Position numbers and translations under genes: made by a program. The notes below the pieces were generated by a model. It saw only the letters and a list, made by a program, of their open reading frames with translations. It searched no databases and had not been told where the DNA came from. Positions 1-9,774 of a DNA stretch of 64,000 bases are shown here, piece after piece (position 1 is the stretch's first letter; the number at the start of each line of letters is the position of its first letter). Source of the stretch: a virus; IMG/VR virus record IMGVR_UViG_3300044695_006747, positions 1 to 64,000 of that record; one strand, 5' to 3'.

Positions 1-42
1 TATTGGTCGTGGTGAGGACGCTATCCCCCATAGATTAGCATT

Positions 43-70
43 ACTATACAGCGTATAAGCCCGCTGTCAA
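43..70 (-). promoter_or_regulatory. sigma70-type promoter TTGACA-16-TATAGT
   Basis: Minus-strand hexamers with 16-bp spacer; target lies off the window edge. Confidence 0.6.
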
Positions 71-74
71 CCCC

Positions 75-499
75 ACGCTGCATAACAGCCGTAGGTTTAT
101 CGTAATGGCTTATCCTAATCTAGTCCCAGGCATGGACCCACGAAAGTTTATGACTAGACAGGCTCCTTACTGCAACTTTCCCAGTGTGACGATTCTTTAA
201 CATCTCTTGGCGAGTTCTCTCGTCTAGTCTTTGTATTGTAAATGCGGCGGGATTTTACCCACACTTCCCTCTGGGGGTCTAACGAACGATGATGGTAGTA
301 CTCCCTCTCACCGTCGGCTGCTCAACGCTTAACCTACGCATTATGTTTTAAGGGACGGATGGATTCGTTGATGCTATGGCGTCACAGGCATCTGCCTCAG
401 CCCGCGCTCTCAACTTGACCATCTACTTCACTACCGTTTACCGGGAGTTGCTCACGCAACCTCGCAGTCCCTTTTGATTTGTCAATGATCGCTTCGAAC
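75..499 (-). ncRNA. Candidate structured ncRNA
   Basis: No ORF over about 25 aa follows the promoter at 506-533. Several helices: AAGGGAC/GTCCCTT, GTTGC-GTGA-GCAAC (GNRA loop), CGTAGGTT/AACCTACG, GACTAGAC/GTCTAGTC. Confidence 0.35.
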
Positions 500-505
500 T
501 CATGT

Positions 506-533
506 ATTCTACAATCTATTATCGGCTTGTCAA
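506..533 (-). promoter_or_regulatory. sigma70-type promoter TTGACA-16-TAGAAT
   Basis: Consensus hexamers, CCGATA in spacer, AT tract upstream. Confidence 0.8.
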
Positions 534-556
534 GAAAAAAAATCCAGAAAAAAAGT

Positions 557-600
557 CTGCCATTTTGGCAGAAATCGCGGCCCCTCTGCCATTTCGGCAG
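557..600. repeat. Palindrome pair 1 (CTGCCATTTTGGCAG-N14-CTGCCATTTCGGCAG)
   Basis: Direct reading; spacer AAATCGCGGCCCCT. Confidence 0.95.
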
Positions 601-612
601 GCGGGGTTTCTT

Positions 613-1101
613 TTAGGCTTCTACCTCATCATCAGCAAAAAAGTCTGTCAAACCAAAATCATTCCAAATAGCAATAGGAATCATATCCTTATTAGTATAT
701 TCGATATAGTTATCAAAACCATTATCATAAATACCACAAAAAGCCATACCCGGCTCAAAATAAGAAGCCTTTACATTATAGCCTAACTCTACCAGTTTTT
801 CATACAAACCAGTAGGAGGAGCCCAAGCACTATCGAACGTGGTACTAACTTGATTACCAACCCGTGTAGCCTTCAATCCATGCCATTCTTCCCTATCTGT
901 ACCAATATCAGCCCCAATATCCCACTTGGTTCCCCAGTTATTCACACAAAAATCATACCATTTTCCATTGTCATAATAATCTTCTGGCATAGGAATAAAC
1001 TCATTGCAAACCTTGCCAGCATTGTATGCTCGCTCAAAACGATCCACCATAGCGGGATCAGCGTGTTCAACGGTCAACTTGTTCAAGCACCAGTTGGGCA
1101 T
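613..1101 (-). CDS. YubB/DUF1281-type ferredoxin-like domain protein
   Basis: MPNWC N-terminus, WYDFCVNNWGTKWD, FDSAWAPP and Y-x-EPG motifs typical of this family; GGAAG upstream. Confidence 0.7.
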   Translation of the reverse strand: MPNWCLNKLTVEHADPAMVDRFERAYNAGKVCNEFIPMPEDYYDNGKWYDFCVNNWGTKWDIGADIGTDREEWHGLKATRVGNQVSTTFDSAWAPPTGLYEKLVELGYNVKASYFEPGMAFCGIYDNGFDNYIEYTNKDMIPIAIWNDFGLTDFFADDEVEA

Positions 1102-1112
1102 TTTTTCTTCCT

Positions 1113-1292
1113 TTAGTTTACACTAGGACGGGGCAACGGACGATCCACAAACAGCATAACGGTTTCCGCAATCTTGTCAATACCACTAGCAATCGTTTCG
1201 TATTGTTCTTCAGTATCCATACCGCTCATGCTGGTACTAATCACACAACAAGCAAACGTTTCCAAAATCTTAGCCAACTCGTCTCGTGTCAT
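1113..1292 (-). CDS. Hypothetical protein, 59 aa (MTRDELAKILETF...)
   Basis: Hand-translated; GGAG RBS; promoter at 1313-1340. Confidence 0.6.
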   Translation of the reverse strand: MTRDELAKILETFACCVISTSMSGMDTEEQYETIASGIDKIAETVMLFVDRPLPRPSVN

Positions 1293-1312
1293 TTTTGTTC
1301 TCCTGTGCTACG

Positions 1313-1340
1313 ATTCTACACTAATGTTATCGGTTGTCAA
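1313..1340 (-). promoter_or_regulatory. sigma70-type promoter TTGACA-16-TAGAAT
   Basis: Consensus hexamers, CCGATA in spacer. Confidence 0.8.
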
Positions 1341-1816
1341 GCCACCATAGCAATAGTTTTTCTGTGGTAGATTGTGGTGATGATATCCTGATTTTCCGCA
1401 TAGAACTTACGAGTTTTCATACTAGATTTGATCTGATCTTTAGGATACTTACAAATATACTCATAAGCATCCCTTACATGATCTTGTGACCAAAATCGGT
1501 CAACCAAATCCCCACACCGTACAGAAAACAGTATATCCACAAAACCCCGCTTATCCAGCACAATAAACAGAAAACGAATTTCTCTTTCTTCCCTGCTCAA
1601 ATCATAATACTTGCTAGGGTCAAGCCACTGTAGATCGGCCTGTTTCTTGCACTCTACCAAACAACCCAGCATATCATTACGATAATCGTACAACTTATGG
1701 CTAGAACGCTCCCATCCGTCAACCCTACTTAGAATAGAAGAAAGAATATTTTCCTTCCCCCCATAACCCTTCAGATTAGCCCTTGACAGGTTGTAAATTT
1801 GTTTTGCGGTGAGCAT
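1337..1816 (-). CDS. Hypothetical protein (likely leaderless)
   Basis: 159-aa ORF; ATG 6 nt downstream of the -10 box. Confidence 0.65.
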   Translation of the reverse strand: MLTAKQIYNLSRANLKGYGGKENILSSILSRVDGWERSSHKLYDYRNDMLGCLVECKKQADLQWLDPSKYYDLSREEREIRFLFIVLDKRGFVDILFSVRCGDLVDRFWSQDHVRDAYEYICKYPKDQIKSSMKTRKFYAENQDIITTIYHRKTIAMVA

Positions 1817-1822
1817 GATTAG

Positions 1823-1850
1823 AGTTTACATCTAAAAGATTTTTTGTCAA
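1823..1850 (-). promoter_or_regulatory. sigma70-type promoter TTGACA-16-TAAACT
   Basis: Hexamers with the same 16-bp spacer. Confidence 0.65.
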
Positions 1851-1856
1851 CAAATC

Positions 1857-1896
1857 TCGCTGACAACACCCATACCGCCCAAATCCGAAGGATTAG
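1857..1896. repeat. Class B upstream element, copy 1
   Basis: GCTGAC-N16-AAATCCGAAGGATTAG; aligns with 3496-3535 and 5155-5194. Confidence 0.7.
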
Positions 1897-1905
1897 CAGA
1901 AACAG

Positions 1906-1977
1906 CAGCCCCGTGGAGAATCGAACTCCAGTCTCTAGGATGAAAGCCTAGTATACTAACCACTATACGACGGGGCC
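1906..1977 (-). tRNA. tRNA-Glu (anticodon TTC), CCA not encoded
   Basis: Acceptor GGCCCCG/CGGGGCT, D-loop AGTGGTTAG, anticodon stem CTAGG/CCTAG with loop CT-TTC-AT, T arm TGGAG-TTCGATT-CTCCA, discriminator G. Confidence 0.93.
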
Positions 1978-1980
1978 AGA

Positions 1981-2136
1981 CTAACCAACCATTTTCTCAA
2001 TCCAAATATAACTACCATACTTATCCTGAGCCTTACGCATAGCATCGATTTCGCTCAGAGCAACAACATAACCAACAAATCGATTGTGTTGAAAAACACG
2101 CCACGAATAACCAGCATAACAGTTTGTAGTAATCAT
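1981..2136 (-). CDS. Hypothetical protein, 51 aa (MITTNCYAGYSW...), likely leaderless
   Basis: Hand-translated; ATG 6 nt from the -10 box; stop 3 nt before the tRNA. Confidence 0.6.
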   Translation of the reverse strand: MITTNCYAGYSWRVFQHNRFVGYVVALSEIDAMRKAQDKYGSYIWIEKMVG

Positions 2137-2142
2137 ACGTTT

Positions 2143-2170
2143 ATTCTAACAGTTGTTATCGGCTTGTCAA
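2143..2170 (-). promoter_or_regulatory. sigma70-type promoter TTGACA-16-TAGAAT
   Basis: Consensus hexamers, CCGATA in spacer. Confidence 0.8.
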
Positions 2171-2183
2171 GAGGAGAACTTTA

Positions 2184-2227
2184 TTGCCATTTTGGCAGAA
2201 ACCGCGGCCGGCCTGCCATTTTGGCAG
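2184..2227. repeat. Palindrome pair 2
   Basis: TTGCCATTTTGGCAG-AAACCGCGGCCGGC-CTGCCATTTTGGCAG. Confidence 0.95.
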
Positions 2228-2245
2228 AGCCTTAGCACAACCCCC

Positions 2246-2653
2246 TCAAAAGAGGAGGCTGGCCAAGCCGGTCTTGAAAGCAACCCCACCCAAGAGGGGA
2301 CGACGCACGTTGCGTGTACGCTCTGCGTAGAAGTTGCGAATCTTACCATCGGGCGTTTGGGCAGTCACAAGATGACGGCTACGCTCAAAGTTAGGATCAT
2401 CCTTACGATAGCGACTCTTGCTATTCAGGCGAGAAATGTAATCGTCAGAAAAACGATGCACTTCCAAAACCTTAGCCATGAATCGCTCAGGCAAACCCGT
2501 AACAGGCTGAACATATTCGAAGTTATAAACACTGCCAATCTTAGCATTCGTAAGCGTATCACGAAGACCACGATAGATATGAAACAGGCTGAAAGCCACA
2601 AGGCCAGCAACCACACCACCAGCAAACACAGCAAACATCGTAAAATCGTTCAT
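2246..2653 (-). CDS. Hypothetical protein with N-terminal membrane anchor
   Basis: Start moved to MNDFTMFAVF (AAGGA upstream, promoter 2694-2721); hydrophobic N-terminal segment. Confidence 0.65.
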   Translation of the reverse strand: MNDFTMFAVFAGGVVAGLVAFSLFHIYRGLRDTLTNAKIGSVYNFEYVQPVTGLPERFMAKVLEVHRFSDDYISRLNSKSRYRKDDPNFERSRHLVTAQTPDGKIRNFYAERTRNVRRPLLGGVAFKTGLASLLF

Positions 2654-2693
2654 AAGAACCCTTTCGTTTAGAAATCCTTCACTCAATAAAACT

Positions 2694-2721
2694 AGCATAC
2701 CACAAGAAAACTGTTTGTCAA
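2694..2721 (-). promoter_or_regulatory. sigma70-type promoter TTGACA-16-TATGCT
   Basis: Hexamers with 16-bp spacer. Confidence 0.65.
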
Positions 2722-3059
2722 GCCTGAACTGTTGCAGGCACCACACTTTCCATAAGATTCTTGGCAATCTCGTGGAAGTTGACAGCACAAACGCTAGCGT
2801 TCAGCAGATCGGCCCAAACCGTTCCGGTCACGTTAGCGTCATTCAAAATCCGTTCCATTTGATCGTTATGCTTCTCTTTGAGTTTTTCGGCCAGAATACA
2901 AGCAGCATCCTCGACCTTGCTAAAATGAACCTGTTCGGATGCTTGGTGATTATAAACTTCCTCAGCAAGCCGACGCCAGTACGCACTTTTCGATTCCGTG
3001 TTGTCGATCCACAACTGAACAGCCCACGTTTCGTAGTTAGAGTAGCCGTTGTAAGTCAT
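2718..3059 (-). CDS. Conserved phage protein of unknown function (YNGxxNYETWxxxLW motif)
   Basis: MTYNGYSNYETWAVQLWIDN start resembles a motif common in small phage proteins; AGGA RBS. Confidence 0.7.
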   Translation of the reverse strand: MTYNGYSNYETWAVQLWIDNTESKSAYWRRLAEEVYNHQASEQVHFSKVEDAACILAEKLKEKHNDQMERILNDANVTGTVWADLLNASVCAVNFHEIAKNLMESVVPATVQA

Positions 3060-3086
3060 TGTTGGTTCCTTTGGGGTGATGCTTCA

Positions 3087-3114
3087 AAGATACCATATAG
3101 ATCGACACTGTCAA
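3087..3114 (-). promoter_or_regulatory. sigma70-type promoter TTGACA-16-TATCTT
   Basis: Hexamers with 16-bp spacer, TCGATC in spacer. Confidence 0.6.
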
Positions 3115-3137
3115 ACAGAAAGTTGAAAAAATATTTG

Positions 3138-3181
3138 CTGCCATTTTGGCAGAAATCGCGGCCCGCCTGTCATTTTGGCAG
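3138..3181. repeat. Palindrome pair 3
   Basis: CTGCCATTTTGGCAG-AAATCGCGGCCCGC-CTGTCATTTTGGCAG. Confidence 0.95.
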
Positions 3182-3427
3182 ATAGGCTATTTCCTGACCG
3201 TTTTCGATCATAGCAGCATAAATAGCGATACGCTTATCTTTCTCTCGCTTCTCGATCTGATGATCGGTTTCTACACTGTCGCGTGAGTCACACTTATGTT
3301 CCAGATCGGCCAGCGAAACACCATCGGTGCGATTATCGCGGAAATCTTCAGGAAGCCAATCGTTTGGAACAACAATAACATCCTTGATCAGTCGCTCAAA
3401 CTCGGCCATCAGTTCGTAACCGTTCAT
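3170..3427 (-). CDS. Hypothetical protein
   Basis: 85-aa ORF, GAGGAG RBS; stop codon lies inside the palindrome. Confidence 0.65.
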   Translation of the reverse strand: MNGYELMAEFERLIKDVIVVPNDWLPEDFRDNRTDGVSLADLEHKCDSRDSVETDHQIEKREKDKRIAIYAAMIENGQEIAYLPK

Positions 3428-3450
3428 CTTTTTCTCCTCTTGATGAATAG

Positions 3451-3478
3451 ATTATACATTTAGAATCGGCATTGTCAA
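3451..3478 (-). promoter_or_regulatory. sigma70-type promoter TTGACA-16-TATAAT
   Basis: Perfect hexamers. Confidence 0.85.
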
Positions 3479-3495
3479 CAAAAGAAAACGGTTTT

Positions 3496-3535
3496 TCGCT
3501 GACTACAGCCACTCTCGCCAAATCCGTAGGATTAG
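3496..3535. repeat. Class B upstream element, copy 2
   Basis: GCTGAC-N16-AAATCCGTAGGATTAG. Confidence 0.7.
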
Positions 3536-3541
3536 GTAGGA

Positions 3542-3715
3542 CTAGTCGTAGTCCCTCATCGCTCGCCGGTTCTGGTCGCCGCGAGTTCGGCCACGCTTGG
3601 GGCGATTGTCGTGAGAGCCGCTACCGCTAATATGGTCGGAGTGTCCGCGACTCACTTCCCAAATCGGCTTCACATTCAGCCGAATCGAATCGTACTTTTT
3701 ATTTCGCTTGCTCAT
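3542..3715 (-). CDS. Small basic His/Arg-rich protein, 57 aa
   Basis: Hand-translated MSKRNKKYDS...GHSDHISGSGSHDNRPKRGRTRG; directly behind promoter 3725-3752. Confidence 0.6.
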   Translation of the reverse strand: MSKRNKKYDSIRLNVKPIWEVSRGHSDHISGSGSHDNRPKRGRTRGDQNRRAMRDYD

Positions 3716-3724
3716 GATGCCCTG

Positions 3725-3752
3725 ATTCTACACTAGTATCGGCCAGTGTCAA
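3725..3752 (-). promoter_or_regulatory. sigma70-type promoter TTGACA-16-TAGAAT
   Basis: Consensus hexamers, CCGATA in spacer. Confidence 0.8.
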
Positions 3753-3776
3753 TAGAAAAATCCAAAAATATTTTTC

Positions 3777-3820
3777 CTGTCATTTTGGCAGAAATCGCGG
3801 CCCCGCTGCCATTTTGGCAG
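3777..3820. repeat. Palindrome pair 4
   Basis: CTGTCATTTTGGCAG-AAATCGCGGCCCCG-CTGCCATTTTGGCAG. Confidence 0.95.
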
Positions 3821-3833
3821 ATCGGGGTTGTTT

Positions 3834-4166
3834 TCAGTAATCCTCGTTATAATCGCCGTAGAAACCGTAGTCCTCATCGGTTCCCCAGCCAGCACTGGCG
3901 AGGCCGGATTCGTGGTCGCCATCCATGCTGTCATAACCATCATCATCATAACCCTCATCTTCATTCATTTGATCACGGATTTCATCCAGCTCGTTTTCCG
4001 GCAAACCCCAAAAATCATTGTGATCATCATAGTTCACATCATCACGGTCGTGCGACTCATCATCAATCCACGGATAAATGGTACGCTCGGCCATCTCGTC
4101 GAAACGGTCAAAAGAATCCTGGCTCATCGTGTTCTCCTCATCGTGAAGGGGATCGGGGTGACTCAT
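3834..4166 (-). CDS. Highly acidic hypothetical protein
   Basis: About one third D/E, no Lys; C-terminal DGDHESGLASAGWGTDEDYG. Confidence 0.65.
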   Translation of the reverse strand: MSHPDPLHDEENTMSQDSFDRFDEMAERTIYPWIDDESHDRDDVNYDDHNDFWGLPENELDEIRDQMNEDEGYDDDGYDSMDGDHESGLASAGWGTDEDYGFYGDYNEDY

Positions 4167-4187
4167 GACTTATCCTTTCTACACTAA

Positions 4188-4388
4188 TCAAAACCGGTCG
4201 TCAAGGGGAGCAAACTCGTCAACAATGCCGACCACTTCGGCCCAATCCCAAAAGTCGGTCAGGTTGCTGGGATCATCAATCGGCTCGACCATCGGCTCGA
4301 CCGTACCATCGTCGGCCAGTTGAGAGAGCAAAGCGTTGATCGTGTCGGTATCATCGAGCAGACCAGCCATTCGCGGAAACTGATTCAT
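4188..4388 (-). CDS. Acidic hypothetical protein (MNQFPRMAG...)
   Basis: Start moved to the ATG with GGAG RBS behind promoter 4418-4445. Confidence 0.55.
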   Translation of the reverse strand: MNQFPRMAGLLDDTDTINALLSQLADDGTVEPMVEPIDDPSNLTDFWDWAEVVGIVDEFAPLDDRF

Positions 4389-4417
4389 CGTCGTTTCTCC
4401 GTTGGGGTGATGCTTTG

Positions 4418-4445
4418 ATTCTACAGTTAGATATCGGCTTGTCAA
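4418..4445 (-). promoter_or_regulatory. sigma70-type promoter TTGACA-16-TAGAAT
   Basis: Consensus hexamers, CCGATA in spacer. Confidence 0.8.
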
Positions 4446-4478
4446 GCAAAGAAAATGTAGTCAAAAAAAAGATTTTTT

Positions 4479-4494
4479 CGGCACACCGTTTGCT
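4479..4494 (+). promoter_or_regulatory. sigma54 -24/-12 box CGGCACACCGTTTGCT
   Basis: Matches YGGCAC-N5-TTGCW; 3 bp before a palindrome pair. Confidence 0.65.
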
Positions 4495-4497
4495 AGC

Positions 4498-4541
4498 CTG
4501 CCATTTTGGCAGCCGGGCCGCGGAAACTGCCATTTTGGCAG
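4498..4541. repeat. Palindrome pair 5
   Basis: Two exact CTGCCATTTTGGCAG; spacer CCGGGCCGCGGAAA. Confidence 0.95.
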
Positions 4542-4551
4542 CCCTTGATAT

Positions 4552-4629
4552 TTAGTGGATTAGGTAAACTGTGAGGCATCCAAAAATAAATGAACCACCG
4601 AAAATAATAATAAGATTATACTTAGTCAT
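4552..4629 (-). CDS. Small membrane peptide, 25 aa (MTKYNLIIIFGGSFIFGCLTVYLIH)
   Basis: Hand-translated; start overlaps the stop of the upstream peptide; AGGA RBS. Confidence 0.45.
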   Translation of the reverse strand: MTKYNLIIIFGGSFIFGCLTVYLIH

Positions 4630-4729
4630 TTTTATTCCTTATAGGAAAAACAAGATCACAAACAACGTAACTAGCAATAACGCCGCAAGCAAATCCCACA
4701 CCTATTTGTACCCAGTTCATATCGGCCAT
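4622..4729 (-). CDS. Small membrane peptide, 35 aa (MADMNWVQIGVGFACGVIASYVVCDLVF...)
   Basis: Hand-translated; hydrophobic core; purine-rich leader. Confidence 0.45.
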   Translation of the reverse strand: MADMNWVQIGVGFACGVIASYVVCDLVFPIRNKND

Positions 4730-4747
4730 CCCTTGCCCCTTTCTTTA

Positions 4748-5050
4748 TTAGGAGTTCACCAAAATATTATCTTCAAACTCTGTACCATCCTGCAAAAACC
4801 ATTCATACTTTCGCTGGTAAACTTTCACAGGAGAATACTGATTGATTCGCTTTTTCGTGGTATGGGTATGATATCCGCCACTATTCAACTTTACAAGCCC
4901 ATTCGGATAGAATCGTACAACGGCCGTACCATGCAACCGAATAGAAACACTGTTATCGTACTCGATTTCCGCATAGGTATTATTACCAACTTTACGAGTC
5001 TTACGATTCGTCTTACCGTGAACCAGAGTAACCGCTTCAGTATAGTTCAT
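4748..5050 (-). CDS. Conserved hypothetical phage protein (MNYTEAV...SGGYHTHTTKKRINQY)
   Basis: Start moved to the ATG with GGAG RBS. Confidence 0.65.
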   Translation of the reverse strand: MNYTEAVTLVHGKTNRKTRKVGNNTYAEIEYDNSVSIRLHGTAVVRFYPNGLVKLNSGGYHTHTTKKRINQYSPVKVYQRKYEWFLQDGTEFEDNILVNS

Positions 5051-5088
5051 TTTTCTACTCCAATGAAAGCAACCAAACCACACTAAGA

Positions 5089-5117
5089 ATCATACTACCC
5101 GCAATCCACACTGTCAA
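5089..5117 (-). promoter_or_regulatory. sigma70-type promoter TTGACA-17-TATGAT
   Basis: Hexamers; only intergenic copy with a 17-bp spacer. Confidence 0.55.
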
Positions 5118-5154
5118 TACCAATCCGATCAAGATTTCCATTAGGCCCTCATTT

Positions 5155-5194
5155 TGGCTGACTATAGCCCACCTTGCCAATCCGATAGGATCGG
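5155..5194. repeat. Class B upstream element, copy 3 (degenerate)
   Basis: GCTGAC-N16-AATCCGATAGGATCGG. Confidence 0.55.
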
Positions 5195-5224
5195 ATAAGA
5201 CAAATCAACCCCCACAACAGGGGA

Positions 5225-5440
5225 CTATGAAACCCCCATCCAAGCGGCATTTTCCAGACAGTAAATATAAAACATATCATTCAGTATTTCCCGATAGTTA
5301 CTATCGGTCAACCGACGACGATCCCTAGTAGACTCACATTCAGCATATAGCCTACCATCTGGCGTGCCGATAAACGTCACGTTATGGCTTTCGCTTCCCC
5401 AAATCTGCTTCAACGCATCACGAAACTTGTTGATTTCCAT
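5225..5440 (-). CDS. Hypothetical protein (MEINKFRDAL...)
   Basis: Start moved to the ATG with AGGAG RBS behind promoter 5472-5499. Confidence 0.6.
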   Translation of the reverse strand: MEINKFRDALKQIWGSESHNVTFIGTPDGRLYAECESTRDRRRLTDSNYREILNDMFYIYCLENAAWMGVS

Positions 5441-5471
5441 TTTTCTTTCTCCTGCTACTAGGTATATCGGT

Positions 5472-5499
5472 ATTCTACCAGCCATCCCTTGAATGTCAA
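5472..5499 (-). promoter_or_regulatory. sigma70-type promoter TTGACA-16-TAGAAT
   Basis: TTGACATTCAAG subtype; CCGATA just downstream of -10. Confidence 0.8.
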
Positions 5500-5532
5500 A
5501 CAAAAAAAATAGCAGAATAATATTTTGTGGTT

Positions 5533-5548
5533 TGGTACGGATTTTGCT
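5533..5548 (+). promoter_or_regulatory. sigma54 -24/-12 box TGGTACGGATTTTGCT
   Basis: Matches consensus with a C-to-T variant; 5 bp before a palindrome pair. Confidence 0.65.
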
Positions 5549-5553
5549 GGTGG

Positions 5554-5597
5554 CTGCCATTTTGGCAGAAATCGCGCGCCGCCTGCCATTTTGGCAG
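5554..5597. repeat. Palindrome pair 6
   Basis: Two exact copies; spacer AAATCGCGCGCCGC. Confidence 0.95.
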
Positions 5598-5609
5598 TAT
5601 TACTTTTCC

Positions 5610-5837
5610 TTATGATGCCTTACCAGCGTATGTAATATAATCTTCCCTATTATTATAACCATGATATCTATATGTAGCACAAGTCATAAACTGTATTACA
5701 TCTTTCATCTTATCAAAAGTGTAACAAGCATGAGTAATCTTACTACGCAGAACATACTTTACAATCTGGCCATCAAAATGCAGATTATAGTTATTCTCTT
5801 CTGCTTTGTTCTCAATATCAACGATTCTATATCTCAT
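5610..5837 (-). CDS. Hypothetical protein (MRYRIVDIENK...), AT-rich
   Basis: AGGA RBS at the end of the upstream ORF. Confidence 0.5.
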   Translation of the reverse strand: MRYRIVDIENKAEENNYNLHFDGQIVKYVLRSKITHACYTFDKMKDVIQFMTCATYRYHGYNNREDYITYAGKAS

Positions 5838-5850
5838 GTTACTATTCCTT

Positions 5851-6024
5851 TCAGCCAAACTGCTCATACTCTTCATCACTCAAATACGGCTCATTTGGAC
5901 GATAGCAGTTGTAACTACCATAATGGTCAGCATTAGTCTCATAATCACACTCTCGCCCACAACGCGAACAAGTAGGCTCATAATCAACAATATCAACCCT
6001 AACACCACAACAGTTACTATTCAT
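5851..6024 (-). CDS. Small Cys-rich (zinc-ribbon-like) protein, 57 aa
   Basis: Hand-translated MNSNCCG...CSRCGRECD; GAGG RBS. Confidence 0.6.
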   Translation of the reverse strand: MNSNCCGVRVDIVDYEPTCSRCGRECDYETNADHYGSYNCYRPNEPYLSDEEYEQFG

Positions 6025-6026
6025 AC

Positions 6027-6218
6027 TCAAACCTCTGCGTAATCGGTCAACTGATCCTGATTAAACAGTCCGAACTGACCATTTTCATCCTTAACAAAAA
6101 ACATAACAAGCGGCTTACCATTCTCGATAATAACATCGAAACTAGTAACAGTAACCTTGCGACCCGAAAGAGTCTTAGCGGTTATGGTCATGACGCTGGT
6201 AATATCGTTGGTAATCAT
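6027..6218 (-). CDS. Hypothetical protein
   Basis: 63-aa ORF abutting its neighbours. Confidence 0.55.
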   Translation of the reverse strand: MITNDITSVMTITAKTLSGRKVTVTSFDVIIENGKPLVMFFVKDENGQFGLFNQDQLTDYAEV

Positions 6219-6227
6219 TTTTATACC

Positions 6228-6299
6228 TTAGAGCGAGAGATAAACGGCCGAAACCACACTGAACAGCATAACAAATGCAAGAGAGATTGTCAAGACCAT
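6228..6299 (-). CDS. Small membrane peptide, 23 aa (MVLTISLAFVMLFSVVSAVYLSL)
   Basis: Hand-translated; GAGGAG RBS; fills the gap exactly. Confidence 0.4.
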   Translation of the reverse strand: MVLTISLAFVMLFSVVSAVYLSL

Positions 6300-6308
6300 T
6301 TTTACTCC

Positions 6309-6548
6309 TCAAACCCCCACACTAGGGGGACTACTCTTGAAGTTGAGTCGAGATTGCAAATGTAACTCGTCAAGAACGAAACCGACCGCACGATCCCTGC
6401 TACCACGGAAAACGTAGTATTTCATACGAATATCGAATAGCGAAACCGTGCCATCCGTTTCGGGATGCACAGTAAAACCGGCACGATAAGCGTAACCATT
6501 CAAGCGACCGGCGACAGTTGAGCGGGAAGGGATTTTCTTGACTTTCAT
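6309..6548 (-). CDS. Hypothetical protein
   Basis: 79-aa ORF, polypurine leader, promoter 6570-6597. Confidence 0.65.
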   Translation of the reverse strand: MKVKKIPSRSTVAGRLNGYAYRAGFTVHPETDGTVSLFDIRMKYYVFRGSRDRAVGFVLDELHLQSRLNFKSSPPSVGV

Positions 6549-6569
6549 TTTCTTTCTTTCTTTCCTACT

Positions 6570-6597
6570 ATTCTACCAAACTTTTCTATCTAATCAA
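6570..6597 (-). promoter_or_regulatory. sigma70-type promoter TTGATT-16-TAGAAT
   Basis: Hexamers with 16-bp spacer. Confidence 0.65.
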
Positions 6598-6614
6598 CCC
6601 CCACTATTGTGGGA

Positions 6615-6818
6615 CTACCATTGATTTCGACGATACTCGTCGTACTCCTCCTGCTCCTCACGACGCTGGCGAGCGGTAACAGGAGGGCCATAGCCCTCGT
6701 TGTATGCGTCAACAGCCGCATCGTAAGCCTCACCGCCACCATCATCACAATGCTCACCGCAACGGGGGCAAATATCCTGAAAATGAACCGGAACACCACA
6801 GCAATCACTAATAATCAT
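6615..6818 (-). CDS. Small Cys-rich (zinc-ribbon-like) protein
   Basis: SDCCG...CPRCGEHCD; promoter 6856-6883. Confidence 0.65.
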   Translation of the reverse strand: MIISDCCGVPVHFQDICPRCGEHCDDGGGEAYDAAVDAYNEGYGPPVTARQRREEQEEYDEYRRNQW

Positions 6819-6855
6819 CTTTCTCTCTCTTTCTTTCTCTTTCTTCTATATCGAC

Positions 6856-6883
6856 ATTATACCAAACACAACTTGAATGTCAA
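6856..6883 (-). promoter_or_regulatory. sigma70-type promoter TTGACA-16-TATAAT
   Basis: Perfect hexamers; TTGACATTCAAG subtype. Confidence 0.85.
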
Positions 6884-6915
6884 ACAAAAAAAATCGGTTG
6901 AAAAAAAGTTTTTTG

Positions 6916-6974
6916 TGGCACGGTATTTGCTAGTAGCAAACCGCGTACCAAAAAAGTTTGGCACAAGATTTGCT
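6916..6974. promoter_or_regulatory. Cluster of three sigma54 boxes: 6916-6931 (+), 6935-6950 (-), 6959-6974 (+)
   Basis: TGGCACGGTATTTGCT, TGGTACGCGGTTTGCT (minus strand) and TGGCACAAGATTTGCT. Confidence 0.7.
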
Positions 6975-6978
6975 GTGG

Positions 6979-7043
6979 CTGCCATTTTGGCAGTCGCCGC
7001 GCGGTTTCTGCCATTTTGGCAGTCAAGGCTGCCAAGTTGACAG
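6979..7043. repeat. Palindrome pair 7 plus degenerate third copy
   Basis: Exact copies at 6979-6993 and 7008-7022, spacer inverted (TCGCCGCGCGGTTT); CTGCCAAGTTGACAG at 7029-7043. Confidence 0.9.
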
Positions 7044-7062
7044 AACCCCTCTCGTGGGTGGG

Positions 7063-7383
7063 TCACCCCTCCCAAGCGAACGGGCTAATCTCCTCCCCCA
7101 TAGTGAGGGTGGCCTCATATTGTGACCGCAAAGCCTCCACCCTCTCCCGACTTCCCGGCTTGCCCACCTTCACAATCATCGTATCCTCACCCAAACCCAT
7201 CCGAGGGTCAACCTTTTCGGCCTTGACGTTGACGCTATCCCGCATGGCCGAGCGATTGAACTTCAACACCTTTTCGCTGCGAATCATACCGCCATCGGCA
7301 GTAGACTTGTCGCAGGGAATGGCGATACCGCTGAAGCAAAGGTAGGCTTGACGCTTGGCCTTTTCGATGATCGGGAAACTCAT
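7063..7383 (-). CDS. Hypothetical protein
   Basis: 106-aa ORF on the coding strand of the region; AGGA upstream. Confidence 0.6.
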   Translation of the reverse strand: MSFPIIEKAKRQAYLCFSGIAIPCDKSTADGGMIRSEKVLKFNRSAMRDSVNVKAEKVDPRMGLGEDTMIVKVGKPGSRERVEALRSQYEATLTMGEEISPFAWEG

Positions 7384-7448
7384 GATTCTTTTCCTATGGT
7401 GAAGTGAAAAACCGAATGTACCAAACTAGCCTAGACTGCTCAACCCCC

Positions 7449-7700
7449 TCACACGAGGCAGGGAGCCTCGGTGAACCAGACCTTGCAATCTTCAAGGTAG
7501 ATGCTCTTGTGGATCACGGGCATCTCGCCCACACTATACATACGATCATTTTCCAGACTATCGGCAAACCGAATCGTGACCAGCGTACCGCGAGCATATG
7601 CTGCAACCTTGACGATTTCGCCAGCATACGTCTTGCCGTTATTCTTCTCACACTCGAAACCGAAACCAACCTGAACACTTCCAAACTTCATCATCTTCAT
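7449..7700 (-). CDS. Small beta-rich (SH3/KOW-like) protein
   Basis: GAGGAG RBS; similar to 8243-8479. Confidence 0.6.
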   Translation of the reverse strand: MKMMKFGSVQVGFGFECEKNNGKTYAGEIVKVAAYARGTLVTIRFADSLENDRMYSVGEMPVIHKSIYLEDCKVWFTEAPCLV

Positions 7701-7721
7701 CTCTCCTCTTGTGATACTCTG

Positions 7722-7749
7722 ATTCTACATTAGATATCGTCGATTGCAA
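7722..7749 (-). promoter_or_regulatory. sigma70-type promoter TTGCAA-16-TAGAAT
   Basis: Hexamers with 16-bp spacer. Confidence 0.7.
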
Positions 7750-7812
7750 GAAAAAAAAATAGGAAAAAATCCGTTGGTGAAAACTTCATCGCTGTCATAT
7801 TGGCATGCCATT

Positions 7813-7828
7813 TGGCACGAGATTTGCT
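7813..7828 (+). promoter_or_regulatory. sigma54 -24/-12 box TGGCACGAGATTTGCT
   Basis: Perfect TGGCACG-N4-TTGCT; 4 bp before a palindrome. Confidence 0.75.
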
Positions 7829-7832
7829 GATG

Positions 7833-7900
7833 CTGCCATTTTGGCAGATTTCGCGCGATTTCTGCCATTTTGGCAGTCGCCTTGTCTGCCATTGTGGCAG
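7833..7900. repeat. Palindrome pair 8 plus third copy
   Basis: Exact copies at 7833-7847 and 7862-7876; CTGCCATTGTGGCAG at 7886-7900; a degenerate copy also at 7792-7806. Confidence 0.95.
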
Positions 7901-7963
7901 GTTCTAACCGCCCGGTTTGGGTGGTACAACCCACCCTTATGGGGGATAGGATAATACCCCCTC

Positions 7964-8164
7964 TCAAGAGCGGGGGTAAGTGTATCCAACGTAAACTAGG
8001 CTAATCTTTTCCCTCTCAGGAAACTTCTCAGCGGACAGATAACTCATAGCCTGAGTTTCATTGTCCGCACGAACACAACCGCGGCTTTCGCCATTGTAGA
8101 AAACATTCCAAGTACGAAACTTGCGAATCTTGGGAAGCGAACGGATGAAATCGTTAACGTGCAT
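7964..8164 (-). CDS. Hypothetical protein
   Basis: 66-aa ORF with polypurine leader and promoter 8205-8232. Confidence 0.6.
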   Translation of the reverse strand: MHVNDFIRSLPKIRKFRTWNVFYNGESRGCVRADNETQAMSYLSAEKFPEREKISLVYVGYTYPRS

Positions 8165-8204
8165 CTTTCTTTCTCTCTTTCTTTCTCTTACTCTTTATAT
8201 CGGT

Positions 8205-8232
8205 ATTCTACAATCCGATACTTGAATGTCAA
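8205..8232 (-). promoter_or_regulatory. sigma70-type promoter TTGACA-16-TAGAAT
   Basis: TTGACATTCAAG subtype; CCGATA downstream of -10. Confidence 0.8.
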
Positions 8233-8242
8233 CTAAAAAAAA

Positions 8243-8479
8243 TCACGATTCCAGAATCGTGTAATCGGTAGCATTGTCGTAAAACGAACGATGCTGGCCA
8301 TTGGCCAAACGCACGACGATCAAATCGTCATTAGCACCATGTTTGATACTAACAACCGTTCCAGCATAATCGTTACCAGAATCGCTTTTCCACGAAACCA
8401 TATCGCCCACCACGAAACGGACGCTAGATTCTACAGTTTTCATTTTCAACTTTCCCTTTTTGGTCATCATCGTAATCAT
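8243..8479 (-). CDS. Small beta-rich (SH3/KOW-like) protein, possibly leaderless
   Basis: ATG 6 nt from the -10 box; similar to 7449-7700. Confidence 0.6.
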   Translation of the reverse strand: MITMMTKKGKLKMKTVESSVRFVVGDMVSWKSDSGNDYAGTVVSIKHGANDDLIVVRLANGQHRSFYDNATDYTILES

Positions 8480-8485
8480 GCCATC

Positions 8486-8513
8486 ATTCTACAATATGGT
8501 ATCGGAATGTCAA
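8486..8513 (-). promoter_or_regulatory. sigma70-type promoter TTGACA-16-TAGAAT (outermost of the array)
   Basis: Consensus hexamers, CCGATA in spacer. Confidence 0.8.
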
Positions 8514-8565
8514 CTAAAAAAAATCACTCAAAATGGATTTGGTGAAAACTTCCCCGATCATGATT

Positions 8566-8581
8566 TGGCACAGGGTTTGCT
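8566..8581 (+). promoter_or_regulatory. sigma54 -24/-12 box TGGCACAGGGTTTGCT
   Basis: Matches consensus; followed only by a GGCAG half-site. Confidence 0.6.
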
Positions 8582-8698
8582 ACGGCAGTTCCCCACCTAT
8601 GGGGGGGTTTTTTTGTTTTCCTACCAATGGGGGGTATTTCCCCCAAAAACGCGGGGTGATGTAAACACAATACCGACCACCGCAATGAATTGGCCAGT

Positions 8699-8926
8699 TT
8701 ACTCAATAGTTTGAATATTTGACTGGTCTACCAATTTAATTTTTCTTGGTCGCCCACGGCTTTTCTTAATATTGAGCTTGCGGCGTTGACGTCGAATCAT
8801 GCTTTTAGTAACATTTTGCCCCGTCATTTCACTTAATTTTGCAGCTAATGTTTCATCATTCATTAGATTCTGGTTGTTAGAAATAAAGTCCAATTCGTTT
8901 TGTAGCCATTTCTTATAATTCGCCAT
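8699..8926 (-). CDS. Small putative DNA-binding protein (HTH-like plus AT-hook)
   Basis: Start moved to MANYKKW (AGGAG RBS); ETLAAKLSEMTGQNVTKSMIRRQR helix pattern; RGRPR motif. Confidence 0.55.
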   Translation of the reverse strand: MANYKKWLQNELDFISNNQNLMNDETLAAKLSEMTGQNVTKSMIRRQRRKLNIKKSRGRPRKIKLVDQSNIQTIE

Positions 8927-8942
8927 TTTTTTGCTCCTAAAA

Positions 8943-8970
8943 TTGACTAAAGTGTATAACTCATTATAAT
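8943..8970 (+). promoter_or_regulatory. sigma70-type promoter TTGACT-16-TATAAT for the sigma-factor operon
   Basis: Same 16-bp spacer; contains AGTGTAT late-type motif. Confidence 0.65.
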
Positions 8971-9002
8971 ATTGTGTTGGCCAAAAAACGCAAGGAGCTT
9001 TT

Positions 9003-9173
9003 ATGAAAAATGAACCAAATATTCCCGACATAGTAATTGACTCAATATTGACCACAAAAGCCCTAGGATCTGTACAAGATATATCAAAAGAGCTACAATT
9101 ACCAGACGGTAAAAATCTAGAAGAATTATTAAATGACCAAAAAGAAGAAGAAGACACAAAAGATACTAAATAA
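9003..9173 (+). CDS. Hypothetical acidic protein, 56 aa
   Basis: Hand-translated; AAGGAG RBS; overlaps the next gene by 41 nt. Confidence 0.45.
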   Translation: MKNEPNIPDIVIDSILTTKALGSVQDISKELQLPDGKNLEELLNDQKEEEDTKDTK

Positions 9174-9774
9174 TGGAGTAACAGAAGAAGAATTTTTAGA
9201 AGTTTTAAATAATATATCAAAAAGATTGGTCCATAAATTTAGATTCGGATATCACGATATTGATGATATGAAACAACAAGCCGCCATATTCGCTATGGAA
9301 GGTTTGGAAAAATTTGATAACACTAGGCCTCTAGAAAACTTTCTTTGGACCCACGTTCGAAATCGATTGTTTAACTACAAAAGAAACAACTACCAAAGGC
9401 CCGATAAACCCTGCTTAAGTTGTCCTTTTTACGACTTGTTATACAAAGAATCTAACAACCAGTGCTCAAAATACAAAAATAAAGATGACTGTGAATTATA
9501 TTTCTCATGGTCTGAACGAAATAATAGCAAAAAAAATATTATGACTTTTCAGAGCATAGAAAATACTTTTGAAAAAGAAGACCACAAAGATCCACTAGAT
9601 ATTATTAAAAACAAAGAAATTATTAGTTATCTTGATAATAATATTGTTAAACCAGAATTTAGAGAAAGCTATTTAAGATTAAAGAATGGATTAAAACTAA
9701 ACAAACCTCTATTGGAAAAATTAAAAAATCACATTATGGAATTGATGAAAGACTTTAATCATGACAGAGAATAG
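9133..9774 (+). CDS. Phage RNA polymerase sigma factor (sigma70 region 2-like) with Cys-rich insert
   Basis: DDMKQQAAIFAMEGLEKFDNTRPLENFLWTHVRNRLFNYKR is a region 2 pattern; CLSC...C...C follows. Confidence 0.7.
   Translation: MTKKKKKTQKILNNGVTEEEFLEVLNNISKRLVHKFRFGYHDIDDMKQQAAIFAMEGLEKFDNTRPLENFLWTHVRNRLFNYKRNNYQRPDKPCLSCPFYDLLYKESNNQCSKYKNKDDCELYFSWSERNNSKKNIMTFQSIENTFEKEDHKDPLDIIKNKEIISYLDNNIVKPEFRESYLRLKNGLKLNKPLLEKLKNHIMELMKDFNHDRE

Follow-up and report, generated by a model that had tools for sequence, protein, structure and literature searches.

A 29-bp-phased double palindrome at early cassette boundaries in freshwater phages as a candidate double operator

In the T4-type phages RB49/phi1, PST/T4 and nt-1/KVP40, promoter-early stem-loops (PeSLs) are composite elements lying between small accessory early genes, in which an inverted repeat stands just upstream of a near-consensus sigma-70 promoter; they cluster in a plastic region, and where relatives differ by an insertion, deletion or exchange, its ends lie at the elements (PMC2839356, PMC4122927). 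The same layout is found in an uncultured lake phage, the 186,823-bp virus record IMGVR_UViG_3300044695_006747, whose bases 1-64000 form the 64,000-nucleotide stretch analysed here (hereafter, the window). Its early region is punctuated by a 44-bp unit made of two copies of the palindrome CTGCCA-TTT-TGGCAG, which lie on the same strand and 29 bp apart from start to start. The PeSL cassette is the nearest described kind of element; new here are the invariant phased double dyad, the registered GC core of its spacer and the adjoining sigma-54-type boxes. A PeSL has one G/C-rich terminator stem of variable sequence, whereas here two invariant 15-bp dyads are held at a fixed 29 bp around a registered GC core, their hairpins are weak and mostly lack a U-tract, and one third of the units are fused to a sigma-54-type box. 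The phages also differ: that described here is a tape-measure phage, in which general scans recognised only a large terminase, a sigma-like protein and a tape-measure protein; no T4-like hallmark turned up in these scans, none of which was aimed at T4 hallmarks.

Other described systems resemble the unit in part. The KorB OB sites of IncP plasmids are multi-copy palindromic operators of a global regulator. Similarly, one invariant palindrome recurs here at many promoter-proximal places and at varying distances, and one protein could control many operons; unlike OB sites, these are always phased pairs, and no ParB/KorB homologue was found. Integron attC arrays also consist of small cassettes in the same direction, each with an imperfect palindromic element right after the stop codon. 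However, there is no integrase here, the cassettes have their own promoters, and what is conserved in the element is its sequence rather than its fold. The doublets are direct, in contrast to the inverted ones of repetitive extragenic palindromes and bacterial interspersed mosaic elements (REP/BIME), and no RAYT (PF01797) match was found in the phage. Finally, the NtrC sites at glnAp2 are sigma-54 enhancers (upstream activating sequences, UAS). Such enhancers, including those bound by Vibrio cholerae FlrC (PMC6504787), share with the unit two dyads about three helical turns apart beside a -24/-12 promoter. They differ in that they lie tens of bp away, whereas palindrome 1 of the unit overlaps the predicted start; in addition, most units are without a canonical box nearby, the phage has no activator, and the promoters run antisense to the genes.

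A phased double palindrome in the early block

A scan of the window with CTGCCATTTTGGCAG (at most 2 mismatches) returned 17 matches, all on the + strand, where 0.13 were expected from shuffled sequences. They consist of eight pairs, in which the partner always lies at exactly +29 bp, and a near copy at 7886. A first-pass annotation of the window had listed the same eight pairs (Table 1), with a 14-bp CGCG-containing spacer in each, and had placed every pair between the end of one leftward unit and the -35 box of the next; all of these statements were borne out, the pairs lying between the stop codon of a leftward gene and a leftward TTGACA-N16-TAGAAT promoter. Its three extra copies fared less evenly: that at 7886 (+ strand) has 1 mismatch, while the copies at 7029 and 7792 each carry 3 mismatches and are degenerate. 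Beyond what the window alone showed, the array continues across the junction of the record. The two ends of the record overlap by 126 bp, and six further pairs lie past the junction at 178987, 180197, 182597, 183906, 184573 and 185696 (span 178987-185739), which brings the record to 14 pairs within ~16.5 kb. The whole-record scan found no pair between 8 and 179 kb, that is, in the remaining ~170 kb, confirming the impression that the motif is clustered in one block and absent from the late region.

The rightward arm of the genome (9.1-77 kb) carries the sigma-like gene, the large terminase gene and the gene of a 5389-aa protein that matches PhageMin_Tail, a phage tail-protein family typical of tape measures. 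The rest is the leftward arm, of which the pairs fill the first 16.5 kb. This block holds ~50 small, mostly ORFan genes, ten tRNA genes and ~30 near-consensus leftward promoters (TTGACA-N16/17-TAnnnT). Every pair comes directly behind the stop codon of a leftward gene. For 13 of the 14 pairs a leftward promoter lies within ~100 nt to the left, and the distance from pair to -35 box is typically 23-25 nt, with other cases at 12-16 and 51-54 nt. The GC content of the early block (178.9-186.8 kb plus 1-8 kb) is 44.5%, versus 34.3% for the genome, and the unit spacers are GC islands containing 8 of the 11 CCGCGG sites of the genome. It is worth noting that CGCG is scarce genome-wide (81 sites versus ~160 expected) and that 17 of the 81 lie within the 14 units. 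At 3167-3181, a C-to-T variant (CTGTCA) of palindrome 2 turns TGG into TGA on the sense strand and ends the gene 3170-3427 (-) within the palindrome. The ten tRNA genes are on the early-gene strand (G000 177232-186472, L080 10232-19472, and window 1905-1977), and the one at 183956-184027 ends ~6 nt from a double-dyad unit.

The exact 44-bp pattern was found in 64 stretches from about 45 freshwater IMG/VR contigs of up to 224 kb. The public runs holding the stretch are lake-water metagenomes, with no RNA run among those listed. In three whole relatives, all but one copy among the matches listed fall in one 9-14-kb block per genome, and in G005, 31 of the 32 copies lie inside 13 kb. Among 185,579 cellular genomes, the double dyad was absent except from one 1.8-kb contig of a metagenome-assembled genome (MAG), which also carries the phage promoters and looks phage-derived; hence, in its double form, the dyad is not a host regulatory site. 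The INPHARED phage collection gave no near match to window 1-9000, and the motif was not found, on either strand, in the papers of the literature searched. Among pair-bearing loci, the most widely kept early gene is the 106-aa ORFan 7063-7383 (-), present at 40 loci, which has no family match and two paralogues in the distant relative L085.

In more distant relatives, the sigma-like gene, a GDP-mannose dehydratase gene and the terminase gene remain syntenic, divergent from a 75-aa gene and the small-gene array. These relatives lack the CTGCCA dyad and carry, at the cassette boundaries, a different tandem two-unit repeat of 53-bp period (TTGACGTAA...ACTTACG with a GC-rich linker; L085 12000-20000, L083 15800-19500), which adjoins the same TTGAC-N-GCCGATA-type promoters. 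A lineage-specific module at the same boundaries is the pattern of operator and binder pairs, and was counted as favouring a DNA operator. A second conserved boundary element of ~50 nt (GCTGAC...CCAAATCCGNAGGATTAGG, + strand) lies between gene end and next promoter where the pair is absent, and is also present in distant relatives without the dyad. Its segment 3493-3536 is exactly common to many metagenome contigs with unlike flanks, and it has no Rfam match.

Conservation was measured over 186 unique units from about 45 contigs. Information content is 1.4-2.0 bits at the dyad positions, except for 0.9 bits at the outermost one of palindrome 1, and ~0-0.4 bits in the flanks and the outer part of the spacer; at the three central positions, at least 97% of units have A or T. 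The 29-bp spacing was seen in 293 cases and any other distance in at most 15; the spacer is always 14 bp long, and 155 of the 186 spacer sequences are distinct. TGTCAA occurs within 60 nt of the unit in 90 of the 186. Covariation was examined in 368 copies found through their partner, so that ascertainment was independent of a copy's own sequence. Among 174 non-consensus stem cells only 4 were compensated, against 170 that were not (80 plain mismatches, and 67 and 23 changes that are G-U-compatible on the + and the - strand, respectively). Neither hairpin could be extended by covarying pairs, nor was an outer helix or palindromic covariation within the spacer found. Hence, the letters are conserved and the pairing is not. 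In the same line, Rfam matched only the tRNAs.

In its own genome, every loop of the phage reads TTT on the + strand, as the first-pass annotation had noticed; as a universal rule this fails, because the relatives show flips. When their units are oriented by the leftward promoter, both loops are T-rich in 106, both are A-rich in 7, and 14 are mixed or undetermined (11 being clear T/A mixes). Loop orientation is strongly biased, and flips are tolerated in about 15% of units. The asymmetric spacer core GGCCGCG, exact in 68 of the 186 units, is found both ways round (by best match, 73 versus 86), and its distance from the arm that it follows is always 3 nt, never the mirrored offset. Neither a loop flip nor a spacer-core flip is neutral for an RNA that is read by sequence.

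The conserved letters, the 29-bp phasing, the A/T centre, the tolerated flips and the different module in diverged lineages point to the 44-bp unit as a probable double operator recognised as double-stranded DNA (dsDNA). Its position at unit boundaries, overlapping a predicted sigma-54-type start, suggests that it may serve as insulator and switch of the early block. Judged from sequence, this reading as a whole has about an even chance of being right. A sequence-specific factor would bind, as a dimer, to each 15-bp dyad with its half-site TGCCA and its A/T centre, and each unit would accommodate two dimers in a fixed geometry, 29 bp apart. The unit marks the upstream boundary of early transcription units, in the order stop codon, 0-19 nt, palindrome 2, 14 bp, palindrome 1, ~24 bp of A/T-rich sequence and -35 box. 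We infer that, once bound, it would block read-through and insulate neighbouring transcription units, and that it would gate the adjoining promoters, chiefly the antisense sigma-54-type promoter, as a single switch for the whole early block. The unit and its promoter together are also the longest repeat through the block, and hence the place where homologous recombination would add, delete and move cassettes.

Several observations weigh against this reading. That the motif is a protein-binding site rather than RNA structure alone, as first proposed, fits every sequence test run, but no binder was found: the phage gave no match to HTH_3, ParB_N, Fis-type HTH, Sigma54_activat or sigma-54, and domain scans of the early genes returned no DNA binder. 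Of the other roles first put forward, that of operator or insulator is plausible, and nothing spoke for DNA entry or for partition, ParB having been sought and not found. Sixteen of the ~30 strong early promoters are without a pair, which is consequently not a general promoter part, and the variable distance to the -35 box disfavours face-specific activation of a sigma-70-type promoter. In 63 of 125 cases the unit lies 0-19 nt from a stop codon, and one unit follows a tRNA gene, which is the place expected of an RNA element at the 3′ end. The excess of wobble-compatible changes on the + strand (67 versus 23, counts that are not independent events) hints at a single-strand role. Lastly, pair-bearing phages hold versions of the 75-aa protein, the sole conserved small protein resembling a DNA binder, down to 44% identity, with no co-variation with the dyad.

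This 75-aa basic protein is encoded by the arm-head gene 8699-8926 (-), divergent from the sigma-like gene. Its family (>261 clusters) is tightly conserved on big phage contigs, with an invariant MVRRQRRK segment and a weak RGRP AT-hook-like tail in 30 of 34 members. No relative was found among solved structures, and a language-model feature hints at GcrA-like regulators (0.84, a lead only). As the specificity factor of the dyad, the protein was rejected because MVRRQRRK does not differ between phages that have the CTGCCA dyad and phages that have the other module. It may instead read a feature common to both groups, for example GCCGATA in the early promoters. The first gene of the rightward arm, 9133-9774 (+), matches Sigma70_r2 and a PHROG sigma factor, in both cases weakly, and its product may be a phage late sigma factor.

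Recognition as DNA or as RNA

The best-surviving alternative to an operator is an element of the RNA 3′ end, in which the hairpins would act as terminators, attenuators, processing sites or 3′ stabilisers and would form, with the next promoter, a terminator-promoter cassette of the PeSL type. Besides the place of half of the units close behind stop codons and of one just after a tRNA gene, this alternative accounts for the fact that the pairs separate transcription units while internal promoters lack them, for the minority of units with a U-run after palindrome 1 (557, 183906 and 185696), and for the layout and link to indels that are shared with PeSLs. We nevertheless regard it as unlikely. 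The RNA form of the palindrome has a folding energy of only -7.1 kcal/mol, and 37 of the 186 units (20%) have a U-rich tract behind palindrome 1 on the sense strand, making the stem-loop a poor intrinsic terminator by sequence; within the window, a consensus scan for intrinsic terminators flagged only 2 units on the - strand and 1 on the + strand. Two units already have, between the stop codon and the pair, a separate hairpin that is much stronger, and what follows one third of the units is a sigma-54-type box, not a U-tract. Compensatory covariation is missing despite wide divergence, hairpins need neither a strict 29-bp spacing nor a registered spacer core, and the loop flips would turn an RNA loop from AAA into UUU. 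Taken together, the weak hairpins, the rare U-tracts, the fixed spacing and the conserved letters favour recognition as dsDNA over a plain terminator.

Sigma-54-type boxes beside the units

The window contains 8 matches to the -24/-12 consensus TGGCAC-N5-TTGCT, where 0.92 would be expected, and 7 of the 8 lie at 4479-8581 (Table 1). In relatives, GGYAC-N5-TTGC accompanies 58 of the 186 units, and in 50 of these 58 the box ends 4-6 nt before palindrome 1; it occurs only on the promoter side of the unit (24 versus 0). The TGGCAC of the box precedes the TGGCAG of palindrome 1 by 29 ± 1 bp, and three TGGCA elements are thereby in one register. The spacer itself contains TGGCAG-N5-CCGC, which gives the GG-N10-GC register of sigma-54 promoters and is kept in 148 of the 186 units; the chance of the spacer-core register match alone is ~1 in 4 by our estimate. 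The boxes are graded from the arm head, being present at 5 of 5 pairs within 1 kb, 13 of 16 at 1-2 kb and 6 of 15 at 4-5 kb, and absent beyond 8 kb, and those beside pairs all point toward the late arm. In the genome of the phage itself, 5 of the 14 units have a canonical box and 9 of the 14 pairs are more than 1 kb from any. The usual distance from -12 to +1 places the predicted start in the A/T centre of palindrome 1, and transcripts from the boxes are predicted to start within this palindrome and to run antisense to the early genes. At window 8566-8616, a canonical box without a pair (TGGCACAGGGTTTGCT) is directly followed by a strong terminator-like hairpin on the + strand (CCCCACC...GGGGGGG and a T-run). 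The predicted start of this box lies inside the 5′ stem arm; the hairpin would hence be missing from its own transcripts but encountered by those arriving from upstream.

These boxes raise the possibility that the dyads are themselves part of a sigma-54 system, either as enhancer sites (downstream, FlrC-like) or as docking or decoy sites for the host holoenzyme, and would drive or park rightward antisense transcription. The fixed register of canonical boxes with palindrome 1, the GG-N10-GC register of the spacer, the steep gradient toward the arm head and the enhancer-like distance between the dyads all fit this explanation. According to a review, FlrC sites typically lie downstream of the start yet act as enhancers, so a downstream position of the dyads is not without precedent (PMC6504787). 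However, profile searches of the phage genome found neither sigma-54 (DNA-binding domain) nor a Sigma54_activat enhancer-binding protein, and the distance of most pairs of this phage from any canonical box counts against such a role. Palindrome 1 would also overlap the start site, the outer arms are conserved yet have no -12 partner (17 and 4 of 186), and the spacer-core register carries the chance probability given above. We regard this explanation as improbable. A weak Sigma54_activ_2 (AAA+) match was considered as an enhancer-binding protein and rejected, as it belongs to a RuvB homologue; this full homologue, with RuvB_N, AAA lid and RuvB_C domains, is encoded at G000 133770-134708 (-) (L082 919-1857).

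A broader proposal is that, in this large clade of freshwater phages, the early region is composed of 29-bp-phased units at which the host sigma-54 machinery docks; serving as an antisense switch gated by ATP, or as a roadblock or decoy for the holoenzyme, these units would turn off and insulate the cassettes. It draws on the -24/-12 boxes, the TGGCA arms and the GG-N10-GC core standing in one register, and on the grading of the boxes toward the arm head; we hold it to be unlikely. No description of such use of sigma-54 by viruses was found in the literature searched, and searches on phage sigma-54 promoters returned nothing relevant.

Table 1. Coordinates of the double-dyad units and of neighbouring features (window positions unless a locus is named)
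Feature	Position	Strand	Remarks
Unit 1	557-600	+	Stop of gene 613-1101(-) 12 nt to the right; -35 of promoter 506-533(-) 23 nt to the left
Unit 2	2184-2227	+	Promoter 2143-2170(-) 13 nt to the left; strong separate hairpin just to the right
Unit 3	3138-3181	+	TGA stop of gene 3170-3427(-) inside palindrome 2
Unit 4	3777-3820	+	Promoter 3725-3752(-) to the left
Unit 5	4498-4541	+	Sigma-54-like box 4479-4494 ahead
Unit 6	5554-5597	+	Sigma-54-like box 5533-5548 ahead; left border of cassette 5598-6978
Unit 7	6979-7022, with degenerate third copy 7029-7043	+	Boxes 6916-6931, 6935-6950(-) and 6959-6974 ahead
Unit 8	7833-7876	+	Degenerate copy 7792-7806 and box 7813-7828 ahead; third copy 7886-7900
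Cassette (small genes and promoter)	5598-6978	-	Bounded by units 6 and 7; absent in L027, L055, L061 and L026
Sigma-54-type -24/-12 boxes	4479, 5533, 6916, 6935(-), 6959, 7813, 8566 (span 4479-8581)	six +	The six on + antisense to early genes; 6935 inverted
Leftward early promoters	span 506-8513	-	TTGACA-N16/17-TAnnnT, spacer often with GCCGATA
Unit-paired promoters	506-533, 2143-2170, 3087-3114, 3725-3752, 4418-4445, 5472-5499, 6856-6883, 7722-7749	-	
GCTGAC...CCAAATCCGNAGGATTAGG element	1855-1900, 3488-3545, 5150-5200; L085 15317-15367, 15562-15612; L083 18815-18866		

Cassette exchange and significance

The loci of relatives were aligned with blastn to the circularised early block, which yielded 188 unique block ends. 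Pairs received 26 of these ends versus 8.8 expected (p about 8e-7), 24 of the 26 being at the right edge of palindrome 2, and promoters received 22 versus 12.4 expected. The cassette between units 6 and 7 (Table 1) is missing from four relatives, in which a single pair has the left flank of unit 6 on one side and the right flank of unit 7 on the other, and the cassette 182707-183893 is relocated in L065. Joints of metagenome contigs also lie at promoter and pair edges, with sides of only ~22 nt that may merely reflect the repeats. The comparison of cassette order and content thus revealed differences with breakpoints at the pairs, and the suggestion that the pairs are sites for cassette shuffling was upheld insofar as block ends fall there and cassettes are lost or moved from pair to pair. 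It was not upheld as to a dedicated enzyme: profile searches found no tyrosine (PF00589) or serine (PF00239) recombinase and no Y1 (HUH) transposase (PF01797) encoded by the phage. Because no recombinase is encoded, homologous recombination between the repeated unit-plus-promoter modules is the simplest and likelier route, and homologous recombination between repeats has also been proposed for PeSLs (PMC4122927).

A dedicated lox-like or attC-like site, whose inverted arms and asymmetric core would be cut by a site-specific enzyme, could place breakpoints at the pairs and move cassettes from pair to pair; the invertible, asymmetric spacer core between inverted arms and a PD-(D/E)XK nuclease gene in the early block are in keeping with it. 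Besides the lack of the enzymes named above, the enrichment of breakpoints at the repeated promoters is what plain homologous recombination predicts, and the cassettes have their own promoters, unlike those of integrons, making a dedicated site very unlikely. Least probable of all, and scarcely credible, is a hairpin signal in single-stranded DNA, as an N4-type virion-RNA-polymerase promoter or a replication or injection signal: the 6-bp stem and 3-nt loop resemble the geometry of N4 early promoters and the wobble-tolerant changes lean to the + strand, but the 5389-aa protein matches a tape-measure-type tail family and not a polymerase, no T7-like RNA polymerase match (PF00940) was found (a weak negative, since the control matched nothing anywhere), the genes have their own consensus sigma-70-type promoters, and there are 28 copies, which are paired.

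The early host-takeover regions of large uncultured phages consist mostly of ORFans, and the 44-bp site offers a single addressable handle on such a region, being invariant and present, in dozens of lake phages, wherever a major cassette boundary lies. Should the unit be bound by a protein, a single factor could be enough to switch or insulate the early programme as a whole. Through the fused sigma-54-type boxes, the timing of the phage would be tied to the enhancer-dependent polymerase of its host, a link that is barely documented for phages. In addition, the element explains how small accessory genes are traded, and it extends the PeSL idea from T4 to an unrelated group of phages and to another kind of repeat.

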